In this document: piece by piece, positions 31,701 to 61,500 of the stretch
Layout: every line of letters starts with the position of its first letter
Numbering within the stretch: the first letter of the stretch is position 1
Origin: Tubulanus polymorphus
Lineage: Eukaryota; Animalia; Nemertea
Length of the DNA: 64,000 nucleotides
NCBI RefSeq assembly: GCF_964204645.1
Contig: NC_134026.1
Coordinates: forward strand, 24,152,150 to 24,216,149
Direction of reading: 5' to 3'
Program-made: the position numbers and the translations under genes
Notes under the pieces: model-generated
What the model saw: the letters and a program-made list of their open reading frames with translations, nothing else
Database searches by the model: none
What the model was told of the DNA's origin: nothing

Positions 31701-32685
31701 GTTATAAGTAAAGCTGTCAGTGCAGTAGCCAAGAAAGAAACGAACCACTTACTTGCAGATCTATATGTAATGCTAAAATGTATTTCTCTAGCTTCAAGAG
31801 AAAACACTATTCAGCAATCTTTGATGGATGAAATCACATCTATTTAAAGGCATGATACTATCGGTCTGTTGAATTGGCTTATATCAACAATTTGAAATGA
31901 CAATGAAGTTTTATTTGAAGTTTTAATGATAAAAAGGTGGGCTAAAAGAGCAATTTGGAATGGTCGAGAACGAATATTGTAGGATATATTATATATACCT
32001 GTTCTTTTTGTATTTTATTCGTAATAAATACTAATATTGTTGATTGTAAAATGATATTTAAAATCTCTGGTTTCCGGATGTCATTTAGCTGGTCTCCAAT
32101 CAGAATAAAAGACTTCCAACATAAAATCCTCATTCAGTCAGTATAACCATAAACTTTCATAATTTTTTATATCAATAATGTCATTATCTTTCATTCATAT
32201 ATACACATGTACATAATATCTACACATCAGGAGATAGTGAACACAATTGGCACTAGGTATTAAAAAGATTCTTTTTTAAAAAGATTCACTTAAAAATGTC
32301 CCAGGAAATAAAATGAAAAGAACATTGAACTATAAAAATTAAACCCGAAACAATGGTGCATTCTACCTCAACATCTACAACATTAACGGCAAAATACAGC
32401 AACAATATCCCTTTTTACATGTACTGGTGCTGTACTTATGTACTACCTAGGAACACCATGCCCACCAAAACTAGATTCTACCTGTAGATGGACAACATAT
32501 GACAAGTGAACGCAATAGCCCTCTGAGGAGACTGAAGTCCAAAACAGGTTGAAAATAACATTATTTCAAAGCAATAATAATGAATACAGTGAGTTTGACT
32601 CGAGGATTTGAGTTAAAATTCATAATCTACAGGTTATTTCAATATTGCACACGATTGTCTTGATAAATGTGCATTTGTTACTCCC

Positions 32686-35600: not shown

Positions 35601-38600
35601 CATCTCCACCCCATTCTTGAGTATCTACCAGTAGGATTACACTAAAAATGAAATATATACAGAAATATATAAGATTTTTATTACTGAAATAGCGAAACCT
35701 TAAATTTCAAAAGAAGCGGTAATGAATGCTCACCCATCATCCTGACCAGTATCATTCGTGTACAAAGCATCAAGAAAGTGATTAACATCCTGTAATTTTC
35801 TGGGGCTTGGTTGTAAACGTTTATTCTTGAGAGGACTTGTACCAACGGGCTGCGAAGTCTCCCCTGTGAAAAAAGAGGGTTAAGAGTGTAATTGACTCTT
35901 CAAACTTATAATGGGTCGTGATTAAATATGGCAAATTAAATGAGATGGTTAGACGAAATTACCTCTTAAATGAAGAGCTACTTGTTCTCCATACGGTAAC
36001 AATTCATAAACTGGCTTTTTATTGACAGTTCTTTTTTTCACCATACCACGGGAACAAAGGATGTTAAGCCTCCAAGTTGCAATACAAAACCCTATAGAAT
36101 GAGAGATTTTTGGGGATGTCACAAGAAGTTGATTGGTTCAATGATGTAGATTAGTAGAATCGAAATTGATTACTTACCAGTAGAATCAGCAGGTAAAAAC
36201 TTCTCTTCGCAAAGTTGTGCCGCTACCTTACACAATGATGCTTCTGACACCGCATAAACTTTCTTAGATGACCTAAAAAGGTAAACAAAATGATGTTATA
36301 CGTTACATTACATTATCCACATAATAACCACAGTTTTTGCAATTTCAGTTAAAGACCAGTTGCTCAAAAGTTGGTTAATAAGAGTTAACCAGTGGATAGA
36401 AAAAACAATGACATAGTGACACAATCCAAAGTCCATTGTCACTATTGAATTTATCCGCTCGTAATCTTTAAGCAAATTTTGAGTACCAGTAACTAGCCCC
36501 AGATATTTATCAAGGTTTTTCAAACTCACGGCTCACTAGTCGATTTTAATCTATCTTCTTTCATATTCAACAGAGTTAATAACAATGCAGGTGCTGATGA
36601 TACAAATCTTCCTTGTCCAGGTGGATCTGCAGCATACTTGTCTTTATCGTTGCAAATGTCTTTCAGTTTATCAGCTAATACATTTCCAATCTGAATGAAA
36701 CATTCTCATAGCTTTCACACAAATGGAATATGGCTTTGAAATCTGCATTTGAAATTGAAAGCTGTCAAATAACTTACCCCTTCCAACTGAGTAGCTTGTT
36801 TTACAGATTTCAGGGGTATGTCACATAAATCTAACGATACGATGGCACGTGATGTACACTCTGCAGCAGACTTAAAGTAATGTCTTGATCTCTGGAAACT
36901 TTCTAGGGGTATAAGTCCTCGGATAAACTTGTGTCTCTGAAAAATAGAAAAAACTTTTTTCTTCAATTTTTGCCAGATTGTGTATGTCATTGTCGACGTC
37001 CAAGACAATTTTTTTGAGGCGCAAGCACCTACGTGAAGTGAGCCTGTTATTCCAGCCTCGTATTCAGATATAGTGTGTACACACTGTATAGCTGCCTGTA
37101 GATACTGGTTGACATGAAATGTATAACTTAACATGACGGAGCGATGATAACTAACGTAAACGTTAGTATATAGCATCGGATACTGATACTCAAATTTCTC
37201 TGAAACAAAAACTCCAGGTTTCGTAAAAACTGAGTATATTACTGAGTAGGCTCGATTGTTCAAGTAGATATATAAAGTAAATGTCTGTGCATCGATTTGT
37301 TCAGGTATCATTTCAACTCACGATTGCATCATTCCACGATATCTAAAATTTAAAAATTCAAACTCAAATTTCTCTCAAACTAAAACCTGGGGCTTTCTGA
37401 AAATCGAGTATAATATTAAGGAAACTCTTTTCTTTAAGTTGATGTAAAGCGGATGTCTGTGCATTGATTTGATCATAATAAAAAACGCGTCATTTCAATA
37501 CACGATTGCATCATGGCGCGATATTCAGAAATTTAAATTTCAAAATCAAATTTCTCTAAAACTAAAACCTGAGGCTGTCTGAAAATCAAGTATATTAATA
37601 AGGAAACTCTATTCTTTAAGTTGATTTAAGGCAGATGTCTGTGCATTGATTTGATCATAGTAAAAAAATGCGTCATTTCAATACACGATTGCATCATGGC
37701 GCGATATTCAGAAATTTAAATTTTAAAATTAAATTTCTCTCAAACTAAAACCTGAGGGTTCCTGAAAATTAAGTATATTAATAAGCAAACTCTATTCTTT
37801 AAGTTGATTCAAGGCAGAAGTCTGTGCATTGATTTGATTATAGTAAAAAAACGCGTCATTTCAATACACGATTGCATCATGGCGCGATATTCAGAAATTT
37901 AAATTTCAAAATTAAATTTCTCTAAAACTAAAACCTGAGGGTTCCTGAAAATTAAGTATATTAATAAGCAAACTCTATTCTTTAAGTTGATGTAAGGCAG
38001 ATGTCTGTGCATTGATTTGATCATAGTAAAAAAAACGCGTCATTTCAATACACGATTGCATCATGGCGCGATATTCAGAAATTTAAATTTCAAAATCAAA
38101 TTTCTCTTAAACTAAAACCTGAGGGTTCCTGAAAAGTAAGTATATTAATAAGCAAACTGTAGTCCTGAGTTGATGTAAAGCGCATGTCTGTGCATTGATT
38201 TGTTCATAGTTAGATTGCCTGTTATTGCGACACACGATTGCATCATTGCGCGATATTCAAAATTTAAAAATTCAAACTCAAATTTCTCTAAAACTAAAAC
38301 CTGGGGTTTCCTGAAAAAACGATTATATCAATAAGATGACTCTATTCTTCAAGTTGATGTAAATAAGATGTCTTTGCATTGATTGGTTTATAGTAAGAAT
38401 TGGTGTTATTTCAATACTCGAAGCATCATTGCGCGAATATTCAAAAATTTAAATTTCAAAATTAAATTTCTCTAAAACAAGATGATTGATGAAAATATTG
38501 AAAATACGAACATATTGATAAACGGTTTAGCGATATTCACTGGAAATTATGTCGATGTAGTCTATTAATCAAAATCGCCCTCTTTCATAAGTTTAGTATT

Positions 38601-41600
38601 TTGCACCTATGTTTTGATTTAGAATCAGCAGTGCGCATATTACTGCCTCAACAAAAACGTGCAGAAAGTGAAATGTTGGTTATGCCAACGTGTATCCGCT
38701 CCTCTGATGACTTTTCTGTTGCTAGGTTTTCCGTTTAAGTCGCAAAATGGGGGTTTGAATTGAACTGTGAACAAATCAATTCTGGCAAATGTAGATAATG
38801 ACTTATACCAAGTACATTGTACTTTCCGATACTTCCAAAAATAAATCCAAATAAAAGCTCGCGTTCCGTTTTATGTTTTTTCTTTATTGAATATAAAAGA
38901 ATCCGTATAATGTAAACTTTTTAGTTTCAAGAGGCTGAGAGGTTTTAGTGTCAATGTGTCGGAATAATTGCTTTGCTTGAATTGTTATCCAAACTAGTCT
39001 TTAAGTGTTCACACTGATGAGCACTTTCCCCCAGGCTTAAGGCCAATATTCAAGAGTTATTCTAGTCTAATAATAATAATAATCCATTAACTATACTATA
39101 TACACTCTATTATTCTTATTTTCAATAATCGTAGTTCTCCCAGTCTAATGTCCTAGCGTATCATATAATACGTTGTATTATTCATTCAATTTATTTCTAA
39201 AAAAGTGAAACCCAAATCATAATATTCCCCTCCCCTCAATCTACGTTCCCGTCCTTGGGGACATTCATATAATAGCCATCATATACAACATATATTGAGC
39301 TGAAAAAAATAAAATCATTTTCCTAAAAAAGATCATATATCTAGCTGAAAAAATTAAACATTTTCCAAAAAGAGATCACTTAAGTAAAAGAGTGTCCCGC
39401 ACCAAAACCTGACGCGAGCTTTAGACCCCAGGAAAAAACACTTTATTGATGGAAATTCAATTACATGATAGCTGCAATGTTATATATATATAGTTCTTTA
39501 ATATATTGTGTACTTCGCTGCCATCAAAATCCGTGGTTCACGATCCTGATAAAAAGTGGCTCCGAATCCATTAACGCAGGGCCGGGAGTGTGATCAGAAA
39601 CGTCAGGATGTGTAGGTGTAATGAACTAGAATTCTTCGATTTTAAAGTCTAATCTATCGAAACATCTGGTTCTTCAAAATCAAAACTTCGATCCCCCGGT
39701 GTCTCCTCGGTACATAGTCCGTGCGCAATATTAGCCCTCTCCACTCGTTCCGCGATCTTACTTCTGGGGTCAGCTGACAGATTTTCCTTGATGTATTGCA
39801 TAATATAACGATGCAGGCGTTCTATTCCACGATCATTTAAATGCAACCCATCCAAACGATAAAATTCTTGTTTGACAGAGAATTGATCTCCTTTGTTTTT
39901 GCGTTTCTGACTCGTTTCGAAAATACGCTGAAATGAGACAACACAATCAAAATGCAGGCTATGAAAATATACCATTTTACAGATGTTAGCCGCCTTTTTG
40001 TTAGCGTACGGTACTAAACTTTGTCCTCTATTGTTAGATAACTTTTTTCTCTTTTTAAAGGATTATTTGTGATGTGTTCTATCATATTTAATTGGTTTGT
40101 AGGTGAATTTTGCCATGTAAGGAGCATTCAAACCATGGGAATACGTATCTTGTTTGTTTTCAGTTATCTAAAATCTACGAGCAATTATAGATGATAAATG
40201 ATTGCAAAAGTCAAAAATACTCTAGAAACCAGCAAATAAGGAGTAATTTTGAATTCTTCATTTTCGTAGCAAATTCAAACTTTGATTGACTTTGGAGGAG
40301 GAGCTTCTTAGTTATCAACTCACTGACCACAAGCCTGCTGAATTATGTAAACATAACAGCTGTGTGTTTTTTATCTTGTAAGCTGTTGTTAATTAATTGC
40401 CTTCACCGGCAATGGTTTTTACTCGGAGCAAAACTTGTTTACTGGGTAAAAAGGAAATATGATAAATTTTTAATTCGTTTCTTATAACTAGATTGATTTA
40501 CCCTCAAATTTTTAGGAAAATCGGACCTCAAATAAAAACAAGGAAGTTTTTTACCCATGTTCTTGCCTTTAATCAGAAATAATCCCCAGAATCATGGAAG
40601 GTGTCATTCAATTCCATCAGTTACAGATTTTTACTCGTTTTACTCGAATTATTGGTCGAGTAGTATACAGGGAGTAAAAAACAAGTTTTTTTTGTCTGGC
40701 CAGTCCAGGGGCCGTGCTGAGATACAAAAAATAACGAACTTCGAATCCCTACGCATGTGGCAAAAACTGGCCACGGGTTTTTTTATCATTCTCATGTCGC
40801 ATTGTTGCGAATTTGAGAAACACTAGAAATGTTTGAATGCTGCCAAAATGTCAAAATCCACCTACAGGCCAATGAAATATGATAAAACACATCACAAATA
40901 ATATTTAAAATAGAAATAATTACCAAACAATAGAGGACAAATGAAAGTACCCTAACAAAATGGTGGCTGGCAACTGTAACATGGTATTAGTTTACGGTAT
41001 ACATTTCATGAATATATATATTTACCTCAGTTTTCATGAAGGAAACCCTTTTGAACCTGGGTTCGCGCAGAAGCTTCTTCGTTAACCTATTAACTTTCTT
41101 CCGCTTCTGATCCTTCACCTTTGAATCATTTCGTGGAAATATCGGCAACAGAAGGATTTTGGTTGATGGCATCATCAGCGCGAGATAACCTAAAAAAAAC
41201 TAGTATCAAGAGGAATTTAGTCATTCGTCATTTAGTCATTTGAATTTTCTGTAATTTTCTGCATAAACTGTTGAGTAACTAACCTGGTATGCCTTTACTA
41301 TATCCTTTGGTTGAACATTTTCGTTTAAATCGTTAGTTCCGACCCATACTATGAGAACGTCCGCGTATTTTATGTCGTCAATTATTTTCTCACCGACGAT
41401 TCTACGCATTACGTCAATGCCTATTCCTGGCCAAAAATGTGTCTTATGATTTTTCGATTCCGGGAAAAAACGACCCATGCTATCACTTAAAAGTATCGTT
41501 TTCATTTTGAATGTGTGCGCGCTCATGTAAACCGGGTAATAATCTGGTAAGAACTGGTTTGAAATTGTTGTGCGCCTTAAACTAGGTAGAGCAGTCACTT

Positions 41601-44600
41601 TTGCTTACGCAACTGATAGTTAAGCAACATAAGATTATATAATATCAATGATTTATAAAAATGTTTATACGTCCATGAAGTAGTTTTGTTTAAAGATTCA
41701 ATGTTACATGTACGTATGATTGAATAATGAGGATGTAGTGGAAAAATCCCAACGTTTTAGTTAGCCACTTAATAATTTCAAGATCAGGATAATAATTGTT
41801 AGGTTCAAAGAAGTATATTGTTCATTTATTTTGCCGCATAACCAAAGCGTTGAAAATGATGGAATATAACATTCTATTTCACCTACACATGCTGTTTAAT
41901 GGGAATGTCTATTTGAGATTAGCTGACACTCTCAGATGAGAAGTGCGGACCGATAAAACACAGCGAAATTGGAATATAACATTCTATTTCACCTACACAT
42001 GCTGTTTAATGGGAATGTCTATTTGAGATTAGCTGACACTCTCAGATGAGAAGTGCGGACCGATAAAACACAGCGAAATGTGAGGAATAGATACAATCTA
42101 TGCCTAGTATAAAAACATTTATACTGTATAGTCCTTATGAATATTGATAGTGTACTACTAATTACAAAGAATGTCGTGCAGGCGTGAAATTCGTGTTAGT
42201 TGATACTTGGTTTTTCGGATTTTATGCCTGTTTGATGGTGATTTCAAAGTCACTTCTGCCAGAAGTTCGATGTACGATTTCCACATGATGTTAAATGTTC
42301 TTTTATCGCTGAAGGTTAAGTTCCATGCTCCTTTACCCTTGTGGCGAAATTTCGTCACGGGTTGGGGGCGGTCTGTACGCTACGCATGAACAAGTTTTTG
42401 GTGCCAAATGAATGGTCGTTTATATGTTTTAGTATCGATTTCATGGTTTCGTAGACTTTTGGACCATTTAAGTTTGGACGCTCCGCGTGACGTCACCCAC
42501 TGCGCGCAATGATCAAAACAAACACAAAGACAAACACGATGTGAAGTCTATTCATAATGAGTTGACGTGCGGCTTTTTCTCCACATCAAAGAGCAGCTAC
42601 TGCTGTGAGCTGTCAGATAGCTGCTACACAAATGATCCATCACAGATGTGCTGACCCACTGCAGCCCAGCGTCCACCAAGAGTGAATAACTACACACACA
42701 TAACTTGCATCTCCAACCACTCAGTTCTTTAATATTACCAGGGAGGTGGGAGTTCACTCCCACCTCCCTGATATTACACAAGTCAGTTTATAATGCAAAT
42801 GATTTGGTTGACAAATTCATTATAAATATCAGCGATGATAAATGAAGAAATCTCACACTTCGAATTTAAAATTATATGATCAAATTTATTATTACGAAAC
42901 CACAACGTTTCGGCTGTTGACTAACAGCCATCATCAGGTGGAATGACCAGAAAAACAAGTTACAAAGCATATAAACTCACAGGATCTAAAATAGAAGCAG
43001 TGTGTCAAAACTAAAGATAAACAGACCAAGCAATAAAACACCAAGGGGTACCGTGGAAACCACAGCAATTCTAAACAGTTCAGAGTAAAAACAAATTATG
43101 TAACTAAGTGAAGTGGACTGAAGAGGGTGGCGATAACAGAGTGACACATAGTGACATTAACCCAAATCTAATAAAGAATTGATGTGTCTGGATAATAATT
43201 GGTTATGTGGAGAAAAACCAGTATTTAAATTAGTAGATAAATTGGATTTCGAAAGTTTACATATTAGGGCTGATTCCACTATGTGTCTCTTATTAATATC
43301 TTTACAAGGATAAATAAGTTTCGAATTCTGAAAGTCAAATTGGTGATTAGTTGTAAAGACATGATTTGCTATTCCACTCTCAGGCTTTTGGTTGCGGATA
43401 TCTATGTTGTGTTCTTTAATACGCTGACTAAGATTACGTCCCGTTTCGCCGATGTACATCATATTACAGTCTTTACATGATGATTCTTCGTCTGAATTAG
43501 ATTCAAACTATGTAATATGGATGCATCCGCAAAAGAGAGTGACTGGGTAGAAGATTATCGTAACTTTTTACACACTTATAGCTATCTGTTTTCAGAGCCT
43601 ATTTTGATTTGTTAGTTGATACAAATTACCTGGCTCGAGATAAAGTTTTTCCTATCATTTACTTCGACTAAAGCATAATATATGTAACCGACCACCCAAA
43701 TCAAGTCAAGTTGAATATGGGTACAATGTCGAGATGAAAACATATCCATGGTTTCCACACGAGAAAAAAAAATAATCAACTCAAATTCAATCATGATAAA
43801 CCCGTCCTTGTTCCTCGAGTAAACAAAAATGATGCCTTGTTTCTCCGCAGCGGCCGGGTCAATTTTTGTAAAATTTGATAAAATTAGTAAACAGTTCATT
43901 TCTAGAGCTGCTGGGTTTGTTATGGTAAAATTGATCACGATTTTTAAAAAAAAGTAATGTATAGGGTAGATAGGCGGCCGGCCGGGTCAACTTCTAAGCT
44001 CAGCAGAGCGGGGAAACAAGGTATCAATTTTTTTAGGCTTAAGCTAGTAGTAAATATATAAATACCATTTAGCGAGACAAATGTATGATGACAGAATAAC
44101 TGCAGTCTAGATTATTTCATTAATTGTTTTGGACACTGATTATGTACCGTGCTGCTTTTCAAATAGGGAAGTTTCCAGTTACAGGCGCCAGAAAATAGAA
44201 ATTGTCGCCTTTCAAACGATAATTTTGGTGTCAGAGGGGGGATGGACGACAATAAATCGTGCCAAAGGTTTTACTTAAAAAAATAAATAAATCTATCCAA
44301 CAACGGTACCTGTGGGACCACCTCAAAATGACGCCTAACTGGAAACTATTACATCACATGGCAACGGGGTTATCTAATATTCAAAATGAATGATGATTCT
44401 GTTTCGCGTATTTTTAGAATCACTCATTTTAGAATCACTCTAATCCGTGTAATGTTGATAAATAAAAAAGTTTCGCAATCGAATATAATGTGATAAAATA
44501 TGGAAGCAAAACCGGCTACTGACTACACACTGACCGGCTACACAGCCACGGTCAGGTGCAATTTCCAGTAAAGAAAAAAGCATACACTCACAGTACATTA

Positions 44601-46471
44601 GCAGGGTTAGCGGTAAAGGCCCCTTATTCTAAGTTAGGTAAAAATCCTCTACCTTTTGAACGGAGTATGAAACAATAACTATAAGGCGGATTTAGTCATA
44701 TTTATTTATTCAATGTATCTATATTTTATTGTACGGTGTACATAAGGATACCATCAACATACCAATTACTTTATACTACATTCTCAAAGTTATCGCACAG
44801 CTCGAACATATCGCAAGTTTGAAACAGGTCACCGCACAGTTAAAATGACACTTGCTTGAATTTAGAATGTTTAAAATATTAAGTGCATTATTTCAAATTT
44901 CTTTTTTTTCGCATCGCTCAGTGAAATGTAACACAAAGTAAAAATAGTCCACCGTTCGACGATGTTCCAGTTCTAATTGAAAAATGTTACAAATTAAGAG
45001 TTCACTTATTCTATGAATTCCAACAACCCCTTATTCGAAGAAATTATCATATGATTTAGGGGATTTTTACCGAGGGAATGTTTTCTCACTACTCATTAGC
45101 AGAAGCTGTTCAGAAAGTATAAAAATGTGATCTTTAGTCAGCGCATCAAAGAACATAAGCCTGAAAGTGAGGTTGCTAATCCCATTTTATCACCAATTTG
45201 ACATAAGAACTCGTTATTTATACTTTAAAAAAATGCAGACACATAGTGGAATCGGCCCTATAGGCCTAAATATAAACGGGAGAAATTTAACTTATACAGC
45301 ATTCACTTTCATACTGGGTGAAATTTTCCACATAGTAATTATCGGTATCTATCTATACGTATATATCAACTTTTTATTGAATATCCGTTTATTCTACAAT
45401 GGACGTCATAAACTAGATTATACTCCTTGATTCTACTAATATGTGTTTTATCCTGTAATGGACCAATGGACGCTAATACGAAGGGACGTAAAAAAGCGGC
45501 GTTAGATCATGACCAGAGCTGTAGACGGATCATATGGCAACGTTGAGATGGCTTTCCGATGAGATGACAGTATTTTGCCAATTATAGCCCCGCCGAATAG
45601 CTCTGAGCTAAGAGCAATCAAGCTCATTGCGTTGAGTTCATAATCTTACTTTACTATTTCGATTGAAACTAAAATTAAATTTTCAGTTGCGTCAGATAGC
45701 TTCGCCGGGGACAGTAAAAGAACTGGGTACATGTTACATCACCCATGATTAGTGACGGAGCAAATAAGCAAAACTAGGAAGAAAACAGCGAGAGGTACCT
45801 CAGTAACCACAGTCTTAACAATCTTTGACTCCATCCAATACGAGTATTAAAGCCCATGATTGGACATTATGTAACCATGGACAAGCCTACAGCAACACCA
45901 AGCTGCCAACATCAACCGATAATCTTGTTGGTAACGCTATTTTTGTTAAAATTGATATACTAAAAGTGGATTGATTTTTCTTCATCGTGGATATATACTT
46001 TAGTATTGCATAACATAATTACATAGCGTTGCGTTGTTCCAATTTCCTTTACTTAAAACGTCAAGCGCATGTTGTTCTATAAGTAAAACCTGAGGTTTCT
46101 TGAAAATTAATGATGTCGGTGCAATAATCTGTTGTATTATTTCAATACACAAATGCATCTTTCGGCAATATTCAAAATTTAGAGATTCAACTAAAATTTT
46201 CTCTCAAACTAAAACCTGAAGCTTTTTGAAAAATGGACTTTGTTGAGCCTATCCTCTCTAAAGTGATAAAGAATTGATTTGTTCATAGTTAGAATACATG
46301 TTATTTCATAGAGGATAGTTAGATACACCATCGATACACAATACACACTGTAAGGGCTGACTGTAGGTTTACAGTAGCCTACCAACCACTGGAAGAGTTT
46401 CATTTCAGGCGAATGAAATTACTCGGAGACTCCCACATACATTTTGGGGCGGCACCTCCTTTAAGTGTATA

Positions 46472-46541
<70 letters not shown>

Positions 46542-49500
46542 TGGTATTCCATAAACGGTACAGATCTTTACTGAAACGCACTCAGTTCAGTAAAATATCA
46601 AAGAATTTCGCTGCAAGTTAGTTTGCGTAAAACCTTGTACCCTCGAAGATCGCGATTATATATAAGTATATTATTTTGGAGCTGCAATCATGGCCAGAAA
46701 AGCCTACAAGAGGTTACACAATGCAAATCATTGCACTCTAGACGAGGAGACGGTAAAAGCGGCTATACAAAAATATGGTGTTCCGAATATTTCTCTTGGT
46801 GATTTAACTTGGGGTTTGATGTCCATTTTTATATACAAAAAAGACACCCCGAAATTACGACGTAAATTGTACGATTACATACGTCGCCATCCAAATCTCA
46901 TGGTCGATGATACACAACAAAATCAAGAACCGGAACCAATTGATCTACAAAGAAAGGCTTGGCTACCGGTAAGTTTCATATCTTTATAGTAACCTGTTAT
47001 TAAGCATAAGTCATGTGTAATTGAGAAAAACTCCAGCTGATTTGCGAAGAAAATATAGAAGATAAAACCTCCACCCCCACCACCTCCCTTGAAATACATC
47101 TATTTGTCGCGCGGTAATAACCGCCTATCTATACTAAACGATTGACACATTACGAGATCCTGGCGTGCTCTGGAAGGCCGATGGTTGCTTCATACGATTG
47201 AATATTGAATTTAAAATTGATTTCATAAAATGTTTCTAACGCAATATGTAGACTAGGCTGTTAAATCCATGTTTCGCGTTTTATCAAACATTTTTTTAAT
47301 ACAAATATAAATGATATTTCAAAAAATTGTTTGTAAGAAACTAAAAAGCTTCAGGCCCTGTACAGCAAGAAAAGTATCAGTTGCAACTAAAAATGTCTAG
47401 GGGGTTCTTGATGTGACTAAAATGTGTACTTGACGTTCTCATAACAAGATAATTGTTATGAGAATGTTTATAGTGTATTTTGTATGTGCATTATTTATTA
47501 ATGATATAATGGAATTTTGTTCAACTTCGTGGAAATCTCACTAAATTTTTCTTAAATTTTCAAACAATTCCTATCGTCCGCATGGTCGTTGTAGCGGCTC
47601 TGCATCATCGGTCGCAAAGTAACATTGCACACAGTCCCTTATTACTTCCCTGGAACCCACCCCTACAGAAATTGATGAGAAATGATTAAAAGTTAAACTA
47701 AAAAGTAAAAAAAATATACGTATTATCATGCAGCACAGAAATCTATAGTCTAGGAATGAAGTCTCCCGTAACAATTTGTAGTGATCATGAAAATAACACT
47801 GACATCCTGTCGCCAGAACTAGAATAGCTAAAAAAGTATATAAAATTGCGTCAGTCGTGTAAAGAATTTCAAAGGACACAGTCCAACGTTATAGAAAGTA
47901 AAATAAAATAGCGAAATATCGGTAAAGAAAGTTTTAAGTACTTTAAAATTCTAGATCCGCTCCGATAATCGATTATCCCTCCGTCTGTGTTTATGTTGTG
48001 GCTATACAAACTAATACTTGCAAGGAGAGGCATCATGTTTATTACTCAAGATGAAACTTAAATTTTAAGTGTTATCTTTAATGTTCAGGACATTTTTGAT
48101 TGTTGTCCACTGATATTTTAGGGCTAACCGGAATAGCCGTTGCACCAGCAGTTCACATAGATACCTGGTGCAAAAATAAACGATATCTCCATATATCTTT
48201 AGAACCACCTACTGGTAACCGCAAGTACTGGTAGGCCTGTAGGTGATCATAGCAAGGTGTGGGCAATAAATTAGCAGAAGCCGATGACAAGTAGTTAATT
48301 AAGCCTTTGCGCAGCATTCGTAGTCAATGCACATGCGTTATTACTCCAAAAGTGATGACAGCACAATGCGCTCTTGTGCTGCGCTGAAAATAAATAATCC
48401 CCTCTCCAAATCACCACTGATTTTAAATCCCCTCTCTGATGCTTGAAGAAAGCTAGTTATTACCACTGTCCATGGTTATTCACCCGTAAATTATATGATG
48501 TTTGGTATAAAACTCAACTTCGCGTATTTTGCTGTTGTTTTCGCCTTTGATCAACCTGCACCAGTAATTTATTGATTATTTCATTTTCTCAGTTTAAGGC
48601 AAAAAAATGATACCCTGTTTCCCATTCTCCGACCGAGTCCCATAAAGTACGACAAAAATCATAAAAATAAATGCTGCCGACCGGGCCTATTACCTTCTTA
48701 TTTTTATGATGCAGATAAAAACCGACCGGGTGGGTCAATATAAGTAGTATATGGTAATGAATTTACTTGTTTAAAATCAGATGCCAAATAGCGTGAGGTC
48801 GGGACTTGAACCTACGCCAACACTCCTGGGTAGAATCGCCGTTGTTCCAGAACCCGTAACGTCGACTGGTGTCCAGACTTCTAGATTAGTCTGGACACCT
48901 TTGCTTTTAACAGAAATACACTCGATCATTTCGACTTAATCACTCAATCATTTCGACTTTCGAAACTCTTGTTTCATAAAGAAATTAAAAAAAATGTTTT
49001 TGAAGTTGAAATTTAAAAATCAGATTCAAATTGGAAATATAAGGTAATTTATATTTGGTTCATGCTAATGATGATGATTCTTGTCTGGGATTTGGAGATT
49101 TTTATAATTTCATTTACTTTTAGATATTTAATTCGTGGCACTAAATAAGTATTTTCATGCGTTTGAATCACGCCAACTCCCCATACTAATGGCGTTTCTT
49201 CGATATTTACTAAAGCTTATTCTATAGAACGCTTTGTAGCCATGAGCGAAAAATCCTCGGTAGTTGGGAATGATCCAAGGTTTGGCAGCTAAACTAGGCA
49301 GAGTCTCTTGCTTATTGTTTCCATTCTGGCTATTTAGAAAAATAGTTGAATAGTTAACGTACCCTCGAAAATTGGGGAAAACAGGAAGATATGAATGAAC
49401 CAACATCTGGAAATCAAACTAGACCTACAAGTATACTATAATGGTATTTGACAAACAGTGAGAACTTCTAAAAACCATATCCTGTACATCTTTTTTATCT

Positions 49501-52500
49501 CAAAAATTTCAGTGGAAACAGTTTTGAAATGAAAATAAAGAAAGGCCGGCCTGGTGGAAATATGTCAAATTTCATACTTTTTATGGAAAAAATAAAAATA
49601 AAATGCTGCCTGCCTGGTCACTTTTGGGCATACAGTTTTCCTCTATAGATGAGAAACAAGGTATCATTTTAGGCCATTTATATAGGTTTCGAATTGTTCT
49701 ACCAGTGTCCCCGTACACAATCAAAGTTCGGTAAAGTGCAGCAATACACCATCTATCAAAAAAATAAGTATTTTTCGAACAGATCTGCACTTCTTGCACC
49801 GTGACTGATAGTAATATTTATTTGTAGGAATCCTGCAATAACATTCAAAATGAAGTTGATTTGACCAGCTCATCGAATTCGAGTTGCATAGAATCGACCA
49901 TATCCTCACCGATAACATATGCTGATATTGTTAAAGCCATGCAAACCTCTTTGTTAGCCGCTTCTGAAGAAAGCGATGATGACGGAAACAACGGCAGCAG
50001 TAGCAGCATTGACAAGGAAATTGATAAAGGTGCATTAAAAAATAAGGCCGAGTATATTCGGCTGACATCGAATGCAGCAACATCGTTATGGTCAAAAGCC
50101 TCCTTGATATCCCCAACGTATGCTGACATATTGAAGGCTACTCCACAATCGAACAGTGGGTCTAAAAGTCAACCGGAAATGGAATCTAGAGCTGTGCCTG
50201 AAAAAACACCACCTGTATGTGTTGAGCAAAGGAATAGTGAAATAGTGCACTCAACCTACGCCGATAAGTTGAAGGCCAACCAGCGAGTGAAATCACCCGC
50301 TAATGATTTTTCTACACATAGCTCGCTGGATGAATCGGAAATTGAGCCTATGGAATGCTCAAATGAATCAGTAGTGCGAAACGATATAGAGTCGTCGAAT
50401 GATATTTCATCACTTTCGCCAACGTATGCCGACATATTGAGAACGAATCCACAATCAAGCGGCGAGACTAAAAAAGAACCCGAACGGGAATCTACACCTA
50501 AAATAACAGTACCACCGGAAGTAAGGACACCACCTCAATATGCGGAGCTACAAAGAACTGCAAAACCTCCATCGTATGACGAAGTCATGCGAAACCGACA
50601 GGCCTATGTCCTCGATGACGAAAAAATAAATGGACCAAATCGGATGACATCAATTAACGAACAAGACGTTGAACCAATCAATACAAAAAACATAGAATTT
50701 AAACGGAATCCACCGCGGCATAAACGTAAACGTTATACCGACTTTTATCGTCCAACGGTCTTCCATCGCTTAGACAGTGGGAATATTAAATACTGCTACT
50801 GCCAGGAACCAAACGATGGGGATCCTATGGTGGAATGCGATTATTGTGGCAACTGGTTTCACTATCGATGTATGAAAACAGACATCAACACGCAAAATTT
50901 TACAGATGAAACAGCCGTATTCTGCTGTTCCAGTTGCACCTCTACTTTCATTCGTGGTTCTAGCAAACGGGGCATCGTGAACATAAAAAACACATGTTGG
51001 CTAATATCGGCAATACAAGCATTTTTGTCAACAAGTTATGCCGGATTTCTGCGGACGATGGATGTCGAGCGACCTGTGCAACGGGTAACTGATGTGGTTC
51101 AAAGGAAAATCCTTCGGATTAAAGATCAACTGTCGTGCATTATACAAATGGTTTGTACTGATACGTTTGATGAACCGTATGTGGGAAGAGAATTTATGGA
51201 CACCTTGATTGAAAGTGTTAATGAACTCCTTCCTGGAGTATCTAACGGTATTATGTTTGATTGTGACGATTTTGTACGCCAAATATTGACAAAACTGCTT
51301 GTGATGTTCGATCGCCAGGATAAACTTCGCTTTATCACAAAAACCTACTGTAAGCGTTTGAACCATCATCACGAATACATAAACAATGACCAACAATTTA
51401 ATGAATTATTGATAGGTCGCTACGCTATTCCGAATGATGATATAATGATGGCTATTCGGCGCTACTTCGAGGAAGAACGCAGAGACTGTCGATGCCCATG
51501 TCCACATTGTGAAACACAGCGTCAGCGTGAAACAGAAGAAGTCAGATATATACAAAAGATAATTAATCTGCCAAAAACGCTGATCGTAAATATGGCCCGT
51601 TGCAGGATTAACTATGAGGACGGATCACTTTTTAAGAACATGGACCCGGTGAAGCCGTCGTCGATATTAGATATGACATCATTCATGGGTGCTGACGCAC
51701 CGCAGTATGCATCTCGGTGTTACTGGTTGTCCGCAGTTATTGTGCATCGAGGTTTCGCAGCAGATAGTGGTCATTATGTAACCTATCGATTCAACCGCGA
51801 TGGGACCGTTACTTTATTCGATGACAGCGTGGTAAAAATTGTTCACCCACAATTAGCGGATGCGGATATCACTATCAATGGACAGATGTTCATATATACG
51901 ATAGATAACATCCACTGTGACGGGATACCAAAAACACAGGCCGAAAATTTGAAAGAAGTTAAACAAATGGAAAACCGATCTATTTCACCAAGGAAGTGCC
52001 GGTCACCAAATTCTCATGAATCGATTCATGAATACAAAAGTCCATCGTTCGAAGATAAAACGGTAAGTAGCGTAACGATGACAGACGATGACATTCTGAG
52101 TCACAGGACATTGGAGGCGCTTTCAAATACAATAGTAGAAATTGATGCATATGAAGCTCCGACACCGGAACCGGCACTATTTCAGTTAAAGGCTGACGAA
52201 TGGAATGAACTCATAAAAAAAGCAACCGTTATAACATCAAAGAAAAAGCCAGCTCAAAGACAAAGATCTCTACCACCGAATTGGGTAAACATATTTCATG
52301 ACTATATAAAAGAAAGCAATCCACATTGTACCATACAATTCAAGGGTCACCGAGTACGAGCAGCAAAATCAAGAAAAAGAAATGCTCCCTTATTTACAGC
52401 AACGGGTTATTGCAGCATTGGAAAGAACGAAGAAGATGTAAGGGAGTGCCCTTGTTCTATAAAGCTGGTGATGAATGATCAATTAAATTGCATAGTTACA

Positions 52501-55500
52501 TACACAGGTACAATACTACACGAGAAAGGTTGCAATAGCCGTAGATATTTCAGAGCAAATGAAAGAGATGAGATGAAAGCCCAATTACTGGATGAAAAGC
52601 ATCCCCGTAAATTACAAGATAGACATATAAGTCAACTTACAAAAACACAGCTAGCTTCCGGCAATTGGTCAGGTGCAACCGTATCCAGTGATGTTTATAG
52701 AAGTATGCAACATGAAGCCAGAAGAGGACTTCAAATGAATGATGATGTGTGGAAGAGTCTTATTGAAATGAAACAAAAATTCAAAATTGAAGACGGACTC
52801 GATGATGAGGACTTACCAGGATATGTACATCATATTGGAATAGATCCGGCCACCATACATCTCTATTCCCACGCAGGAATTAAAGCATATCACGACCTTG
52901 CAACAAACTTTCCCATATATTATGATGCAACGGGGTCAATTATAAGGAAGCAAAAAGATGGACCAGATTACTACTATCATGCATTAGTTATTCACAATCC
53001 AAACGTCAAACCAAGCACTCCTTTAGCAATAGCTGAGATGATAACCCGAAGCCAAAATGCACCCACAATTATATCATGGTTGGCAAACATCCAGCACGCC
53101 GAAAAACGAATTTACGGGTACAAAAATACGATATCACCATGCATTATTTCAGCTGATAGAAGCGCAACATTTTTGTTAGCCTGGTCGAAAATGATTAATT
53201 CTGAAGACGTTGCAGATCACTTGCAGAGAGCGTACCGAATAGTAACCGGTGAAGCTTCAAAAGATGATTTAGGAAAAACCATATACCATATGGGATGTTG
53301 CCACCTTATGAAGGATGCTAAAGTAATGGTGAAAAAGTACTATGCAGCAAATTATCGACTCGGCATGTACATTTTCAGCGTACTGGCAAACGTCTCTAAC
53401 CTGAAACGTTTTGAAGATCTATACTACAGCATTTGTTACGTATTGATTTCACAAAAAAACTCACCAAAAACTGCTGAGCACATGCGTAGACTGCAAGCTG
53501 CACTGGAAACATTGGGCACAGAGGAAGAAGATGTTATAAAAAGCACCTATGTCGAACCCGAGGTAAAAAATAACGATGATGAGGGCGGGGATGAAGAGAT
53601 GTCTAATCGTTTGACAGAAGAAGAATTCATTCATTCGAATAAAACTTCGTCATTTGCTAAAATGGGTAAGAAAATACTGGAGAGGGTGCGAGCGGATATC
53701 TTGACAGAACGTGCAAACGAGTACATTGAGGAAAACCCTGCAGTATCAGAAACATTACTGAAGAAGATACAAAGTCATTACATTCCGACTATACCATTAT
53801 GGTCTAACATGCTGCGTGGGGACCTCAGACGACACTTCCCAAACGGAAGTTCGCAGCGTGAATTCGTTCGCCTCACCGGTACCGTACCCAAAACACAAGG
53901 ATTAATTGAAGAATTTTGGAAAGATGTCAAAGGTTCGATGACCAATTACATTCGCTGGCGCCCAGATGTATTTGTATCTAAAGCCAAAGATTTCCACGTA
54001 TCCAGGTGCAAAAAGTTTTTCATGCAGTCTACTTTAAAGAAAAAGACAAAGCGTGCTGGGAAACGATTAAAAAGTCTGACGAAAGAGAAGTGGCATCATA
54101 CGCCAACAGTTCTAGGCAGAAAAATGACTGGTAACAGTAACACAAAGAAAAAAGGCCACTTCCAAAAACCTCCCAAAACTCCAGTGACAGCTCGAAAAAA
54201 AACTGATTCCACAAAATTGCAGAAAAAGATCACTCAGGCAGGAGAAAAGAACAAAGCAATTGGCATTTCAACAAAACGGAAATTGACCTTCGAACCAATG
54301 ATCAAAAAAGTTAAGTTTGATAACTCGACACTCAACAGAAGTGACCACGAAAAGACGGTAAACGAAATAAACTTCCATCCAGGAAATACATCAACCCCTA
54401 AAATGAAGAAGGTGATCACATTTAACAAACCTAAAAATTCTGTTGAAGTCATCACAATATCACCTGAGCAACAAGAGAAAAACAACAAAAAGATCGTCTT
54501 CAGACACGCCTATCACTTGTCATTAAAGGTAATAGGAAGTATCTTGAATTCAAAGGAATGGCTAACCGATGAAGTGATTCATGCATATGCAGAAGCTGTT
54601 TTCTGTAATACTAATGCCAATTTCCTAACAAGTTTTTTCTACAGCGCCTGCTTGAATAAAAATCAAACCACAGATCCAGTGGTATATCTCAAAGATGACA
54701 TTACTGATAAAAAGTATCTTTTTATACCAATCAATAGATCTAATCATCATTGGGTATGCGTTATCATCAATACCGAAGCAAGGCATTTGATATATCTAGA
54801 TCCTACCAATAGAAGTGGCCCTACACTGCATGGACAACAGGCAATAAAGGTGATAAAGGATGTTTTTCAACGGAAAATGGGAGAAACCTTCATGGAAAAC
54901 TGGACAGAGCTATACGACCCACCAAGTAAAACTCTGCAAATTGACTTAAGCAACTGTGGTGTATACATTTGTGCATATTTCGAATCAATGTTGATATCAT
55001 CAAAATTGTCATTCAATCTCAGGGAAAACTGGACAGCATTAAAGTATCGGAAGAAGATGCATGCTATTCTGATGAAAGCCAAGTCTAATGCAGTTACCTA
55101 TTAAAAAGTCTAATGCAAAGTATCCACAAGGGTCAACAGTTTGTATGTTGGTTTGTTGAGGTTCTGAAATATCACTTTCCTATCAGGGTCGAGTCATCGG
55201 TCCACGCGATGCCAGTATACCTACTAGGGTCAATAGTTTGTATATGTCGGATTTTTTTAAAGTTCTGAAATATCAATTTTCCCTATGAGGGTCGAGTCAT
55301 CGGTCCACGCGATGCCAGTACCCACTAGGGTCATTGTATATGTCGGTTTATTGAGGTTCTCAAATATCAATTTTCCCTATCAGGGTCGAGTCATCGGTCC
55401 ACGCGATGCCAGTACCCACTAGGGTCATTGTATATGTCGGTTTATTGAGGTTCTCAAATATCAATTTTCCCTATGAGGGTCGAGTCATCGGTCCACGCGA

Positions 55501-58500
55501 TGCCAGTACCCACTAGGGTCAATAGTTTGTATATGTCGGATTTTTTTAAAGTTCTGAAATATCAATTTTCCCTATGAGGGTCGAGTCATCGGTCCACGCG
55601 ATGCCAGTATCCACTAGGGTCATTGTATATGTCGGTTTGTTGAGGTTCTGAAATATCACTTTTCCCTATGAGGGTCGAGTCATCGGTCCACGCGATGCCA
55701 GTATCCACTAGGGTCAATAGTTTGTATATGTCGGTTTATTGAGGTTCTCAAATATCAATTTTCCCTATGAGGGTCGAGTCATCGGTCCACGCGATGCCAG
55801 TACCTACTAGGGTCAATAGTTTGTATATGTCGGTTTATTGAGGTTCTGAAATATCAATTTTCCCTATGAGGGTCGAGTCATCGGTCCACGCGATGCCAGT
55901 ACCTACTAGGGTCAATAGTTTGTATATGTCGGTTTATTGAGGTTCTGAAATATCAATTTTCCCTATCAGGGTCGAGTCATCGGTCCACGCGATGCCAGTA
56001 TCCACTAGGGTCAATAGTTTGTATATGTCGGGTTTTTTTAAAGTTCTGAAATATCAATTTTCCCTATGAGGGTCGAGTCGTCGGTCCATGCGATGCCAGT
56101 ACCCACTAGGGTCATTGTATATGTCGGTTTATTGAGGTTCTCAAATATCAATTTTCCCTATCAGGGTCGAGTCATCGGTCCACGCGATGCCAGTATCCAC
56201 TAGGGTCAATAGTTTGTATATGTCGGGTTTTTTTAAAGTTCTGAAATATCAATTTTCCCTATGAGGGTCGAGTCGTCGGTCCATGCGATGCCAGTACCCA
56301 CTAGGGTCATTGTATATGTCGGTTTATTGAGGTTCTCAAATATCAATTTTCCCTATCAGGGTCGAGTCATCGGTCCACGCGATGCCAGTATCCACTAGGG
56401 TCAATAGTTTGTATATGTCGGGTTTTTTTAAAGTTCTGAAATATCAATTTTCCCTATGAGGGTCGAGTCATCGGTCCACGCGATGCCAGTACCCACTAGG
56501 GTCAATAGTTTGTATATGTCGGATTTTTTTAAAGTTCTGAAATATCAATTTTCCCTATGAGGGTCGAGTCATCGGTCCACGCGATGCCAGTACCCACTAG
56601 GGTCATTGTATATGTCGGTTTATTGAGGTTCTCAAATATCAATTTTCCCTATCAGGGTCGAGTCATCGGTCCACGCGATGCCAGTATCCACTAGGGTCAA
56701 TAGTTTGTATATGTCGGGTTTTTTTAAAGTTCTGAAATATCAATTTTCCCTATGAGGGTCGAGTCATCGGTCCACGCGATGCCAGTATCCACTAGGGTCA
56801 ATAGTTTGTATATGTCGGGTTTTTTTAAAGTTCTGAAATATCAATTTTCCCTATGAGGGTCGAGTCATCGGTCCACGCGATGCCAGTACCCACTAGGGTC
56901 AATAGTTTGTATATGTCGGATTTTTTTAAAGTTCTGAAATATCAATTTTCCCTATGAGGGTCGAGTCATCGGTCCACGCGATGCCAGTACCCACTAGGGT
57001 CAATAGTTTGTATATGTCGGGTTTTTTTAAAGTTCTGAAATATCAATTTTCCCTATGAGGGTCGAGTCATCGGTCCACGCGATGCCAGTATCCACTAGGG
57101 TCAATAGTTTGTATATGTCGGGTTTTTTTAAAGTTCTGAAATATCAATTTTCCCTATGAGGGTCGAGTCATCGGTCCACGCGATGCCAGTACCCACTAGG
57201 GTCAATAGTTTGTATATGTCGGATTTTTTTAAAGTTCTGAAATATCAATTTTCCCTATGAGGGTCGAGTCATCGGTCCACGCGATGCCAGTACCCACTAG
57301 GGTCAATAGTTTGTATATGTCGGGTTTTTTTAAAGTTCTGAAATATCAATTTTCCCTATGAGGGTCGAGTCATCGGTCCACGCGATGCCAGTATCCACTA
57401 GGGTCAATAGTTTGTATATGTCGGGTTTTTTTAAAGTTCTGAAATATCAATTTTCCCTATGAGGGTCGAGTCATCGGTCCACGCGATGCCAGTACCCACT
57501 AGGGTCAATAGTTTGTATATGTCGGATTTTTTTAAAGTTCTGAAATATCAATTTTCCCTATGAGGGTCGAGTCATCGGTCCACGCGATGCCAGTACCCAC
57601 TAGGGTCAATAGTTTGTATATGTCGGGTTTTTTTAAAGTTCTGAAATATCAATTTTCCCTATGAGGGTCGAGTCATCGGTCCACGCGATGCCAGTATCCA
57701 CTAGGGTCAATAGTTTGTATATGTCGGGTTTTTTTAAAGTTCTGAAATATCAATTTTCCCTATGAGGGTCGAGTCATCGGTCCACGCGATGCCAGTACCC
57801 ACTAGGGTCATTGTATATGTCGGTTTATTGAGGTTCTGAAATATCAATTTTCCCTATGAGGGTCGAGTCATCGGTCCACGCGATGCCAGTACCCACTAGG
57901 GTCATTGTATATGTCGGTTTGTTGAGGTTCTGAAATTTCAATTTTCCCTATCAGGGTCGAGTCATCGGTCCACGCGATGCCAGTACCCAATAGGGTCAAT
58001 AGTTTGTATATGTCGGGTTTTTTAAAGTTCTGAAATATCAATTTTCCCTATCAGGGTCGAGTCATCGGTCCACGCGATGCCAGTACCCACTGGGGCCAAT
58101 ACTTTGTATGTAATACGTACATTTGTTTTCTAAAGGTATAGATTTTCAGCTCAGAAGATTATTCCATGAGATGGTTTATGGCAAGAAGATGGTTTCAAGA
58201 AGATAATTCCATGGCAAAGTCTATCCCCGTATCATAGGCCCTTATAAGGGCCACTCATATGTCCAGAAAGAGCAGTTTGTGCAGCGCCTCCTCGCTTTGC
58301 TTCAAATTTTTACATTTAACTTCATATAAGTAGCCAACGAAAGGAGGTATAAACCGTGAGAAATTTTAATGAAACGTCATTTTCATTAATTATGTTTTAC
58401 GTGTTCGTGTTCGTTTTGAATATCGCTCCATGGTGCAAATGTTTATTGCAATACCACGTAAAAACCAATGCACAGACTTCTGCCTAACATCAACTTATAG

Positions 58501-61500
58501 ATATTAAAAAAAATTCAGATAAAAGAAATTCTTTTTGTCTTAAGTCAACTTAAAGAATAGAGTTTCCTGAATATTATACTTGATTTTCAGAAAGCCTCAG
58601 GTTTTAGTTTTAGAGAAATTTGATTTTGAATTTTTACTTTTTAAATATCGAGCCATGATGCAATCGTGTATTGAAATGACGCGTTTTTTACTATGATCGA
58701 ATCAATGCACAGACATCTGCCTTAAATAAACTTAAAGAATAGTTTCCTGAATACTATACTGGATTTTCAGAAAGCCTCAGGTTTTAGTTTAAGAGGAATT
58801 TGATTTTGAATTTTAAATTTCTGAATATCACGCCATGATGCAATCGTGTATTGAAATGACGCGTTTTTTTACTATGATCAAATCAATGCACAGACATCTG
58901 CCTTAAATCAACCTAAAGAATAGAGTTTCCTTATTAATATACTTGATTTTCGGAAAGCCTCAGGTTTTAGTTTTAGAGAAATTTTATTTTGAAATTTAAA
59001 TTTCTGAATATCGCGCCATGATGCAATCGTGTATTGAAATGACGCGTTTTTTTACTATGATCAAATCAATGCACAGACATCTGCCTTGAATCAACTTAAA
59101 GAATAGAGTTTCCTGAATATTATACTGGATTTTCAGAAAGCCTCAGGTTTTAGTTTTAGAGAAACATGATTTTGAATTTTAACTTTTTAAATATCGCGCA
59201 ATGATGCAATTGTGTATTGAAATGACGCGTTTTTTTACTATGATCAAATCAATGCACAGACATCTGCCTTAAATCATCTTAAAGAATAGAGTTTCCTGAA
59301 TATTATACTAGATTTTCAGAAAGCCTCGGGTTTTAGTTTAAGAGGAATTTGATTTTGAATTTTTACTTTTTAAATATCGTGCCATGATGTAATCGTGTAT
59401 TGAAATGACGCGTTTTTTACTATGATCGAATCAATGCACAGACATCTGCCTTAAATAAACTTAAAGAATAGTTTCCTGAATATTATACTGGATTTTCAGA
59501 AAGCCTCAGGTTTTAGTTTAAGAGGAATTTGATTTTGAATTTTAACTTTTTAAATATCGCGCAATGATGCAATCGCGTATTGAAATGACGCGTTTTTTTT
59601 ACTATGATCAAATCAATGCACAGACATCTGCCTTGAATCAACTTAAAGAATAGAGTTTGCTTATTAATATACTTGATTTTCAGACAGCCTCAGGTTTTAG
59701 TTTTAGAGAAATTTGATTTTGAAATTTAAATTTCTGAATATCGCGCCATGATGCAATCGTGTATTGAAATGACGCATTTTTTTACTATGATCAAATCAAT
59801 GCACAGACATCTGCCTTAAATCAACTTAAAGAATAGAGTTTCCTTATTAATATACTTGATTTTCAGACAGCCTCAGGTTTTAGTTTTAGAGAAATTTGAT
59901 TTTGAAATTTAAATTTCTGAATATCGCGCCATGATGCAATCGTGTATTGAAATGACGCGTTTTTTTACTATGATCAAATCAATGCACAGACATCTGCCTT
60001 AAATCAACTTAAAGAATAGAGTTTCCTGAATATTATACTGGATTTTCAGAAAGCCTCAGGTTTTAGTTTAAGAGGAATTTGATTTTGAATTTTAACTTTT
60101 TAAATATCGCGCAATGATGCAATCGTGTATTGAAATGACGCGTTTTTTTACTATGATCAAATCAATGCACAGACATCTGCCTTAAATCAACTTAAAGAAT
60201 AGAGTTTCCTGAATATTATACTGGATTTTCAGAAAGCCTCAGGTTTTAGTTTAAGAGGAATTTGATTTTGAATTTTAACTTTTTAAATATCGCGCAATGA
60301 TGCAATCGTGTATTGAAATGACGCGTTTTTTTACTATGATCAAATCAATGCACAGACATCTGCCTTAAATCAACTTAAAGAATAGAGTTTCCTGAATATT
60401 ATACTTGATTTTCAGAAAGCCTCAGGTTTTAGTTTTAGAGAAATTTGATTTTGAATTTTAATTTTTAAATACTGCGCCTTGATGCAGTCGTGTATTGAAA
60501 TATTGCATTTTTTACTATGATCAAATCATTGCACAGACATCTGCCTTAAAGAATAGAGTTTCCTTTATAATATTCTCGATTTTCAGAAAGCCTCAGGTTT
60601 TAGATTAATGGAATTTTATTTTTTGAAATTTAAATTTCTGAATATCGCGCAATGATGCAATCGTGTATTGAAATGACGCGTTTTTTTTACTATGAAAAAA
60701 TCAATGCACAGACATCTGCCTTGAATCAACTTAAAGACTAGAGTTAATATACTTAATTATCCTCAGGTTTGAGTTTAAGAGAAATTTGATTTTTAATTTT
60801 AATTTTTGAATATCGTGCCACGATGCTATCGTCTATTGAAATGACGCATTTTTTACTATAATCAAACCAATGCACAGACATCTGCTTTACATCAACTTTA
60901 CATCAGAGTGTGCTTATTAATATACTTAATTTTAAGGAAGTCTCAGGTTTCAGAGTTTCAGAGAAATCTCATTATGAATTTTAGCTTTTTAAATATCACC
61001 CAATGATGCAATCGTGTATTGAAATGACGCGTTTTTTACTATGATCAAATCAATGCACAGACATCTGCCTTAAATCAACTTAAAGAATAGAGTTTCCTGA
61101 ATATTATACTGGATTTTCAGAAAGCCTCAGATTTTAGTTTTAGAGAAATTTGATTTTGAATTTTAACTTTTTAAATATCGTGCCATGATGCAATTGTGTA
61201 TTGAAATGACGCGTTTTTTTACTATGATCAAATCAATGCACAGACATCTGCTTTGAATCAACTTAAAGAATAGAGTTTGCTTATTGATATACTTAATTTT
61301 CAGGAACCCTCAGGTTTTAGTTTTAGAGAAATTTAATCTTGAAATTTAAATTTCTGAATATCGCGCCATGATGCAATCGTGTATTGAAATGACGCGTTTT
61401 TTTACTATGATCAAATCAATGCACAGACATCTGCCTTAAATCAACTTAAAGAATAGAGTTTCCTGAATATTATACTGGATTTTCAGAAAGCCTCAGGTTT

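Follow-up and report, generated by a model that had tools for sequence, protein, structure and literature searches.

Why would a DNA transposase carry, on one polypeptide chain, a chromatin-reading PHD finger and two different proteases acting on ubiquitin-like modifiers? The question is raised by a gene of the nemertean Tubulanus polymorphus, located in a 64,000-nucleotide stretch of contig NC_134026.1 (assembly GCF_964204645.1, positions 24,152,150 to 24,216,149 of the forward strand). This whole stretch is called the window below, and all coordinates refer to it. Here, we found that the gene is enclosed in a complete foldback DNA transposon of 26,149 bp (37027–63175). Our tentative answer, to which we give somewhat less than an even chance, is that the PHD finger docks the transposase at histone H3 trimethylated on lysine 4 (H3K4me3), while a ubiquitin-specific protease (USP) and an Ulp1 protease clear ubiquitin and SUMO from the DNA-bound complex.

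The transposase gene combines all these modules in a single intact frame. Its long exon (49828–55104, forward strand) is one stop-free frame of 1,758 amino acids (aa), a length that an open frame would reach by chance with a probability of about 5e-56, and it encodes, in this order, a low-complexity linker, the PHD finger, the USP, a WRKY-like domain, the DDE transposase core, a basic linker and the Ulp1 domain. Upstream lies a probable first coding exon of 93 aa (46690–46968, forward strand), whose frame closes at a GT and is connected, in an in-phase GT-AG model with a 2,859-bp intron, to the AG acceptor at 49826–49827; the joined chain is predicted to have about 1,851 aa. For this exon no usable homologue was found (best E 0.047). 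The pre-PHD linker is disordered and contains six TYAD-like short repeats of the (T/S/Q)Y(A/D)(D/E) type at 49915–50590. The initial annotation had described a transposase fused to a PHD finger, a USP and an Ulp1 protease at 46690–55104; an intact fusion gene indeed lies within that span, while the enclosing 26-kb element had been overlooked.

Both proteases have intact active sites. The USP (peptidase C19; 50968–51897, forward strand) matches Pfam UCH over aa 381–690 with an E of 1.6e-20, and the Ulp1/SENP domain (peptidase C48; 54556–55047, forward strand) matches Pfam Peptidase_C48 over aa 1577–1740 with an E of 1.1e-12, both above the curated cut-offs. The USP catalytic set N385, C390, H649 and D665, as well as the Ulp1 triad H1641/D1658/C1710 and its oxyanion Q1704, are present, and both domains align with solved enzymes, the best matches of the Ulp1 domain being SENP3/5/2 and Ulp1 (E 1e-7 to 3e-6) and a weaker one being ChlaDub2. 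The earlier claim of a PHD finger, a USP and an Ulp1 in one frame with intact active sites is thus borne out by Pfam matches and by residues aligned to solved structures. It is likely that the USP and the Ulp1 are both active isopeptidases.

In order to see whether these features are shared, we turned to the relatives of the core. At an E of up to 0.001, a HMMER search with the core yielded 782 relatives, and the top 150 of these were analysed; the Pfam scan covered 63 of the 64 relatives of at least 780 aa, and profiles derived from its hits were then run on all 151 proteins, the query included. In the family USPs the catalytic Cys is kept in 31/31 and the His in 16/16 where covered (four truncated rows being set aside), and in the family Ulp1 domains the His, Gln and Cys are each kept in 17/17 and the Asp in 16/17. 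This is found at a mean identity of 21% for the USP and 20% for the Ulp1 alignment, with 6/254 and 4/200 invariant columns, respectively. Transposase and protease tree distances are correlated (rho 0.71, n=17, p 0.0005, and rho 0.57, n=16, p 0.001), the protease trees behind these values being poorly resolved and built without host outgroups. This indicates that the proteases have been inherited alongside the transposase over a long time and under selection, apparently with internal reshuffling.

The central region of the protein is an RNase H-like DDE transposase core with a helical insertion (52735–54050, forward strand), as defined by an AlphaFold model, structure matches and conservation. 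The model, made from a 97-sequence alignment (17 long sequences were left out for size), reached a pLDDT (predicted local distance difference test) of 90, against 35 for a single-sequence fold. Its best structural match is ISCth4 of the IS256 family (Z 11.8, 243 aligned residues, root-mean-square deviation 5.7), which has the same combination of DDE and Trp, and further matches are the P element and Hermes transposases (Z 9.2). The ESM Atlas neighbours of the core are clusters of Mutator-like elements (MULEs), at 0.90–0.94. No Pfam family, MULE (PF10551) included, matched aa 780–1420 at E up to 10, which is expected for an outgroup lineage. Within an alignment of 60 near-complete cores, query included, D1033 (52924) is kept in 59/60, D1110 (53155) and H1159 (53302) in 60/60, W1325 (53800) in 55/60 and E1361 (53908) in 53 of the 55 cores ungapped at this position. 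Given the fold matches and the kept DDE residues, it can be concluded that the protein is a Mutator-side DDE enzyme, and the RNase H-like fold proposed for it in the initial annotation is confirmed by the model and by the ISCth4 match. Of the motifs read there (DATG/ADRS/CCH/E), the D, D and E residues stand, but the "CCH" is off the family CxxH register, since the Cys column of that motif (C in 56/60 cores) is Gly1156 in the query and also Gly in its nearest relative, P0003. Between the USP and the core, a WRKY/Aft2-like fold with conserved C862, C874 and H898 (52165–52536, forward strand) is a predicted DNA-binding domain; its structure matches to WRKY18 and AFT2 are weak (Z 5.0).

The PHD finger (50791–50937, forward strand) has a cage of the H3K4me3-reading type, formed by Y322, M334 and W343 together with D338. 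Its Pfam match (aa 323–370, 50794–50937) has an E of 7.8e-6, above the curated cut-off, and the closest solved relatives are PHF23, Spp1, PHF13 and DIDO1. M334 and W343 correspond in the alignment to M353 and W362 of PHF23, and mutation of either of the latter abolishes H3K4me3 binding (PMC7335091); the residue at the position of PHF23 F348 is non-aromatic here. A cage Met is typical of H3K4me3-reading PHD fingers and is found in that of RAG2 as well (PMC8246079). Of 20 PHD fingers in the family, 19 keep the cage Trp, 19 have Met, Tyr or Trp in place of the Met, and 13 have Tyr or Phe at the first cage position. Since this Tyr/Met/Trp cage is that of H3K4me3 readers, the finger is predicted to see active promoters, and we consider H3K4me3 its probable ligand.

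The element around the gene is delimited by several features. It is flanked by 9-bp target-site duplications, GGCGCAAGC, at 37018–37026 and 63176–63184; apart from the left site, the sequence occurs in the window only at 63176, and exact agreement of a 9-mer at fixed places would be expected by chance with a probability of 8e-6. The terminal inverted repeats at 37027–37133 (forward) and 63069–63175 (reverse) place the element start at 37027 and its end at 63175, and are identical at 102/102 bases past the five outermost bases, which partly differ. Matches to contigs and reads from other copies stop at 37027, which marks the left end. Further inside there are two arrays of 183-bp units in inverted orientation to each other, the left one at 37190–38478 (forward; 6.4 copies by TRF in 37308–38478) and the right one at 58539–62868 (reverse; about 24 copies), while a minisatellite of 30 units of 101 bp (55119–58109) follows the transposase stop codon and precedes the right inverted repeat. 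No 9-mers are shared among the tips, the 183-bp unit and the 101-bp unit. One degenerate 183-bp unit (about 80%) was also observed at 46134–46232, about 460 bp before the predicted start of the transposase; it is possible that it is an autoregulatory binding site or the remnant of an older end. A host gene fusion or an assembly artefact was considered as well, and was ruled out by the duplication, the inverted repeats, independent contigs spanning the frame in three runs and the presence of the same domain order in a sea cucumber.

These features correspond to a named group of transposons. Rehavkus elements are described as having a 9-bp target-site duplication, one open reading frame, a PHD finger and, ahead of the 3' terminal inverted repeat, a minisatellite, with few members known outside Repbase (PMC6446971), and as having long inverted termini filled with subterminal tandem repeats (bioRxiv 10.1101/2024.12.02.626372). 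The present element has the 9-bp duplication, the long inverted repeats with subterminal arrays, the PHD finger and the minisatellite in the same place. Moreover, its core has the motifs DATGS, xD(F/H/R)S, H-(F/L)-(M/F)-K, (I)LP(I)LPLW(S/T) and the final E, as compared by eye with six sequences from the supplement of PMC13359780, Rehavkus-1_TC and Rehavkus-1_HR being the closest. On these sequence features, the element is very probably a Rehavkus, that is, a member of a group standing beside or inside MULE/MuDR, and thus its pairing of a transposase with a PHD finger, a domain listed for Rehavkus among the groups tabulated in PMC6446971, is that of a named group. Membership of Ginger, Zisupton/KDZ or canonical MULEs was excluded, as the core motifs match Rehavkus. 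The differences are in size (26 kb versus 4.9 and 10.7 kb in two tabulated members; PMC6446971), in the Gly that replaces the C/D of the C/DxxH motif, whose His is invariant, and in gene content, this copy having an SGNH-like gene (described below) in addition to its one transposase gene.

The proteases have precedents on other transposases. Like our element, Ginger1 and Mutator have ubiquitin-like proteases, namely Ulp1 or OTU, fused to their DDE transposases, Ginger1-9_HM carries both an Ulp1 and a PHD finger, and a Trichomonas protein combines transposase_11 with peptidase C19 (PMC2836005). However, according to the same source, a Ginger1 transposase has an OTU or an Ulp1 and never both, while here two different erasers and a reader are found on a transposase of another superfamily. 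Muta1, an active foldback MULE of Aedes aegypti, shares the DDE and Trp residues, the subterminal repeats and a target-site duplication of 8–9 bp, but measures 3.2 kb, has repeats of 12 bp and encodes a transposase of 504 codons, and neither a USP nor an Ulp1 is mentioned for it in the accessible text (PMC5499845). For Rehavkus itself, there were 0 occurrences of USP or Ulp1 in the text of PMC6446971 and three of its supplements. A USP together with an Ulp1 on one transposase, or a USP on Rehavkus, was not found in mostly open-access literature, covered, apart from the papers cited here, through listings and the opening lines of abstracts, Repbase Reports not being covered. Repbase entries for Rehavkus may already record an Ulp1. 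The initial annotation had known of no description of the full combination; this holds, within the literature searched, for the set of four modules, while the element as such falls in a named group.

The fusion is not confined to this locus. Among the query and the best 150 of the 782 relatives, a USP was found in 31 proteins, an Ulp1 in 17, a PHD finger in 20 and both proteases in 11, and all four modules are present in 6 of the 151 (5 of the best 150 relatives and the query). The order of modules in these six proteins is PHD-core-USP-Ulp1 (three), core-PHD-USP-Ulp1, PHD-core-Ulp1-USP and, in the query, PHD-USP-core-Ulp1. The query clusters, with an SH-aLRT support of 99, with two proteins of Apostichopus japonicus, P0071 (PHD-USP-core, truncated) and P0003 (core-Ulp1), so its own order is a lineage trait and not a one-off. 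As the domain order varies freely across the family, a function exerted by tethering would fit. Another relative, P0037, has a C-terminal Macro domain as well as a stretch that looks by eye like a divergent USP; judged from these, it may add a third type of modification eraser or reader to the same transposase family. Word-based homologue searches, which are nearly blind, returned 0, 1 and 0 matches, the last among proteins of 3,694–5,000 aa. In viral contigs 0/70 candidate stretches were confirmed as relatives, and in metagenome contigs we found 3 short intron-bearing loci with too little space for added domains.

The element is multicopy and its insertion seems to be recent. Copy evidence was taken from public DNA runs with the same species label (X1 and X4), in which depths are rough: in X1 the depth was 39 for the host gene and 1,600–4,300 for the tip (about 40–110 times), and in X4 the ratio was about 50. 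These values point to tens of elements carrying the same tip. The interior is represented by several copies at 90–99%, some of them deleted or broken, and element pieces in X1 differ at 1–2 positions per 1,000–1,300 bases. One X1 contig tracks the left flank to 37030 and continues with 1,010 letters unlike the window; an empty site predicts precisely this end point, as it would differ from the window at 37027 and agree with it at 37028–37030. From this contig and the near-identical X1 pieces, this is likely to be a recent and polymorphic insertion. In X4, 241 reads had loose letters before the left tip at 37027 with one dominant consensus (agreement 0.92), which means that many tips share one flank, i.e., that the tip sits in an amplified repeat. 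According to our gene model, the element sits 119 bp downstream of the predicted start codon of the interrupted host gene (32634–36936 and 63274–63303, reverse strand), within a first intron that is predicted to measure 179 bp. This gene has HhH-like and ERCC4-like regions and long low-complexity exons, and is weakly MUS81-like (ERCC4 E 1e-4, HHH_8 E 0.05; no PDB sequence match). A short high-copy palindromic repeat (depth over 1,000) was noted in one of its introns at 36356–36399.

How could these modules work together? We propose that the WRKY-like domain and the core would bind the element ends, with the subterminal arrays helping as in Muta1, whose ends are cut by means of the DDE and Trp residues and whose subterminal repeats increase both binding and excision (PMC5499845). 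The PHD finger would then bring the complex to target sites at active gene starts, where nucleosomes carry H3K4me3, and the USP and Ulp1 would free the DNA-bound complex of ubiquitin and SUMO and so keep the host from clearing the enzyme. To the idea that the transpososome itself is the main substrate of both proteases, within a route of SUMO-then-ubiquitin removal, we likewise give less than an even chance. SUMO-targeted ubiquitin removal is a host pathway, and the presence of both proteases in one chain fits such a two-step SUMO-ubiquitin signal acting in cis. Several points weigh against this proposal. The core is alone in 105 of the 151 proteins, many of them fragments, and several full-length branches have only a PHD finger or no added domain; as there are such branches, and one with a Macro domain, the proteases are accessory and dispensable for transposition as such. 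In this copy the canonical CxxH Cys is replaced by Gly. A preference for NEDD8 or ubiquitin is possible in peptidase C48 domains, ChlaDub2 being among the weaker matches of the Ulp1, and the family profiles were built from the same proteins that they scored, which biases them to intact domains. We found no enrichment of SUMO-interacting motifs in the linkers when tested by shuffling (12 seen versus 9.5 in shuffled linkers, 48/200). Finally, maize Mu favours transcription start sites and H3K4me3 regions (PMC2774946), and since it already reaches these regions, while the PHD finger is listed for Rehavkus among the tabulated groups, the single promoter-near site of our element says little about the PHD finger.

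An alternative is that the complex protects the element from silencing: the transposase would bind its own arrays, the proteases would erase SUMO (of the piRNA/SetDB1 type) and H2A ubiquitin (Polycomb), and the PHD finger would hold the element promoter active. About 30 copies of the 183-bp unit, together with the degenerate one at 46134–46232, would concentrate the enzyme on the element, the active sites of both proteases are conserved, and VANDAL/VANC shows that MULEs can possess anti-silencing that is sequence-specific (PMC6446971). However, the PHD finger is of the active-mark class and not a reader of H3K9me or unmodified H3K4, and the protein must first be expressed in order to act. The cage thus favours, as far as its predicted ligand goes, active-promoter targeting over heterochromatin anti-silencing; the heterochromatin setting suggested in the initial annotation does not agree with it, and we regard this alternative as rather unlikely, though it is the strongest of the rivals.

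Less probable again is a role in repair, in which the proteases would act on PCNA, H2A/H2AX and the 53BP1 route at the excision break, so that the checkpoint would be damped or donor-restoring gap repair favoured. This has been proposed for Ulp1 and OTU on Ginger1 and Mutator transposases (PMC2836005), and tethering in cis would place the proteases at the break, but the PHD finger is left unexplained and relatives without proteases persist. Viral polyproteins are processed by cysteine proteases, and long disordered linkers lie on both sides of the core; one of the proteases might therefore cleave the 1,850-aa chain and free the transposase. Nevertheless, what USP and SENP enzymes recognise is a folded ubiquitin-like protein with Gly-Gly at its end, and the freely varying domain order agrees more with tethering in cis than with cleavage at fixed sites, which makes such processing very improbable. 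Least credible of all is neutral cargo, i.e., host gene pieces captured in Pack-MULE style and passively carried, since, although MULEs capture host DNA and many relatives are without the domains, the catalytic residues do not vary even at about 20% identity, the domains lie in frame without introns and co-diverge with the transposase, and 6/11 copy differences listed in PHD and USP are synonymous versus 21% expected (p 0.015; the linker has a similar excess, 6/13), a count that rests on 24 coding rows listed out of 376 differences.

Apart from the transposase gene, the element contains a second gene, for an SGNH/GDSL-like hydrolase (39649–41505, reverse strand), predicted to have three exons (41505–41284, 41190–41026 and about 39927/39906–39649) in a GT-AG model that is open throughout and gives 215–222 aa. 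Its match to Pfam Lipase_GDSL_2 is under the cut-off (E 0.025–0.028), and the S, GxND and DxxH motifs were read from the sequence. In this copy the gene is intact and oriented away from the transposase gene. SGNH esterases are also carried by some ORF1 proteins of long interspersed nuclear elements. An inverted repeat pair in its second intron (39969–40133 / 40831–40987; 81%, 165 bp) is probably a small non-autonomous insertion. A GIY-YIG endonuclease fragment at 43157–43507 (reverse strand; Pfam E 2e-4) probably represents the end of a nested Penelope-like retroelement, and a perfect 110-bp tandem duplication was seen at 41860–42079. Outside the element, the window contains ordinary host genes at 1900–28378 (forward strand), encoding an amino-acid permease, an RNase H1-like protein and a TRABID/ZRANB1-like OTU deubiquitinase.

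The modules have been known singly, namely the PHD finger on Rehavkus, Ulp1 on Mutator and Ginger1, and C19 on the Trichomonas transposase, and the reason why transposases keep ubiquitin-like proteases is a question raised previously (PMC2836005). The copy described here is intact and complete, has defined ends, has likely moved recently and carries both proteases and a reader, which makes this question directly testable. An element of 26 kb that moves by cut-and-paste is also of interest for its cargo capacity. In RAG1-RAG2, an H3K4me3-reading PHD finger is coupled to a DNA-cutting machine (PMC8246079), a comparison of working principle only. If the PHD finger of our element steers insertion, it would be a natural one-chain parallel to that pair. 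Spp1-guided meiotic breaks likewise couple a PHD finger that reads H3K4me3 to DNA cutting; in both of these systems the reader is a separate host subunit, whereas here it is inside the transposase chain. It is conceivable, although we consider it doubtful in its full extent, that we are dealing with a widespread and undescribed animal branch of Rehavkus, in which one chain would read H3K4me3 and erase ubiquitin and SUMO where it binds or cuts, thereby defeating host transposon control by SUMO and ubiquitin, and in which the four modules would have been kept by selection and rearranged into at least four orders, so that only their tethering would matter.

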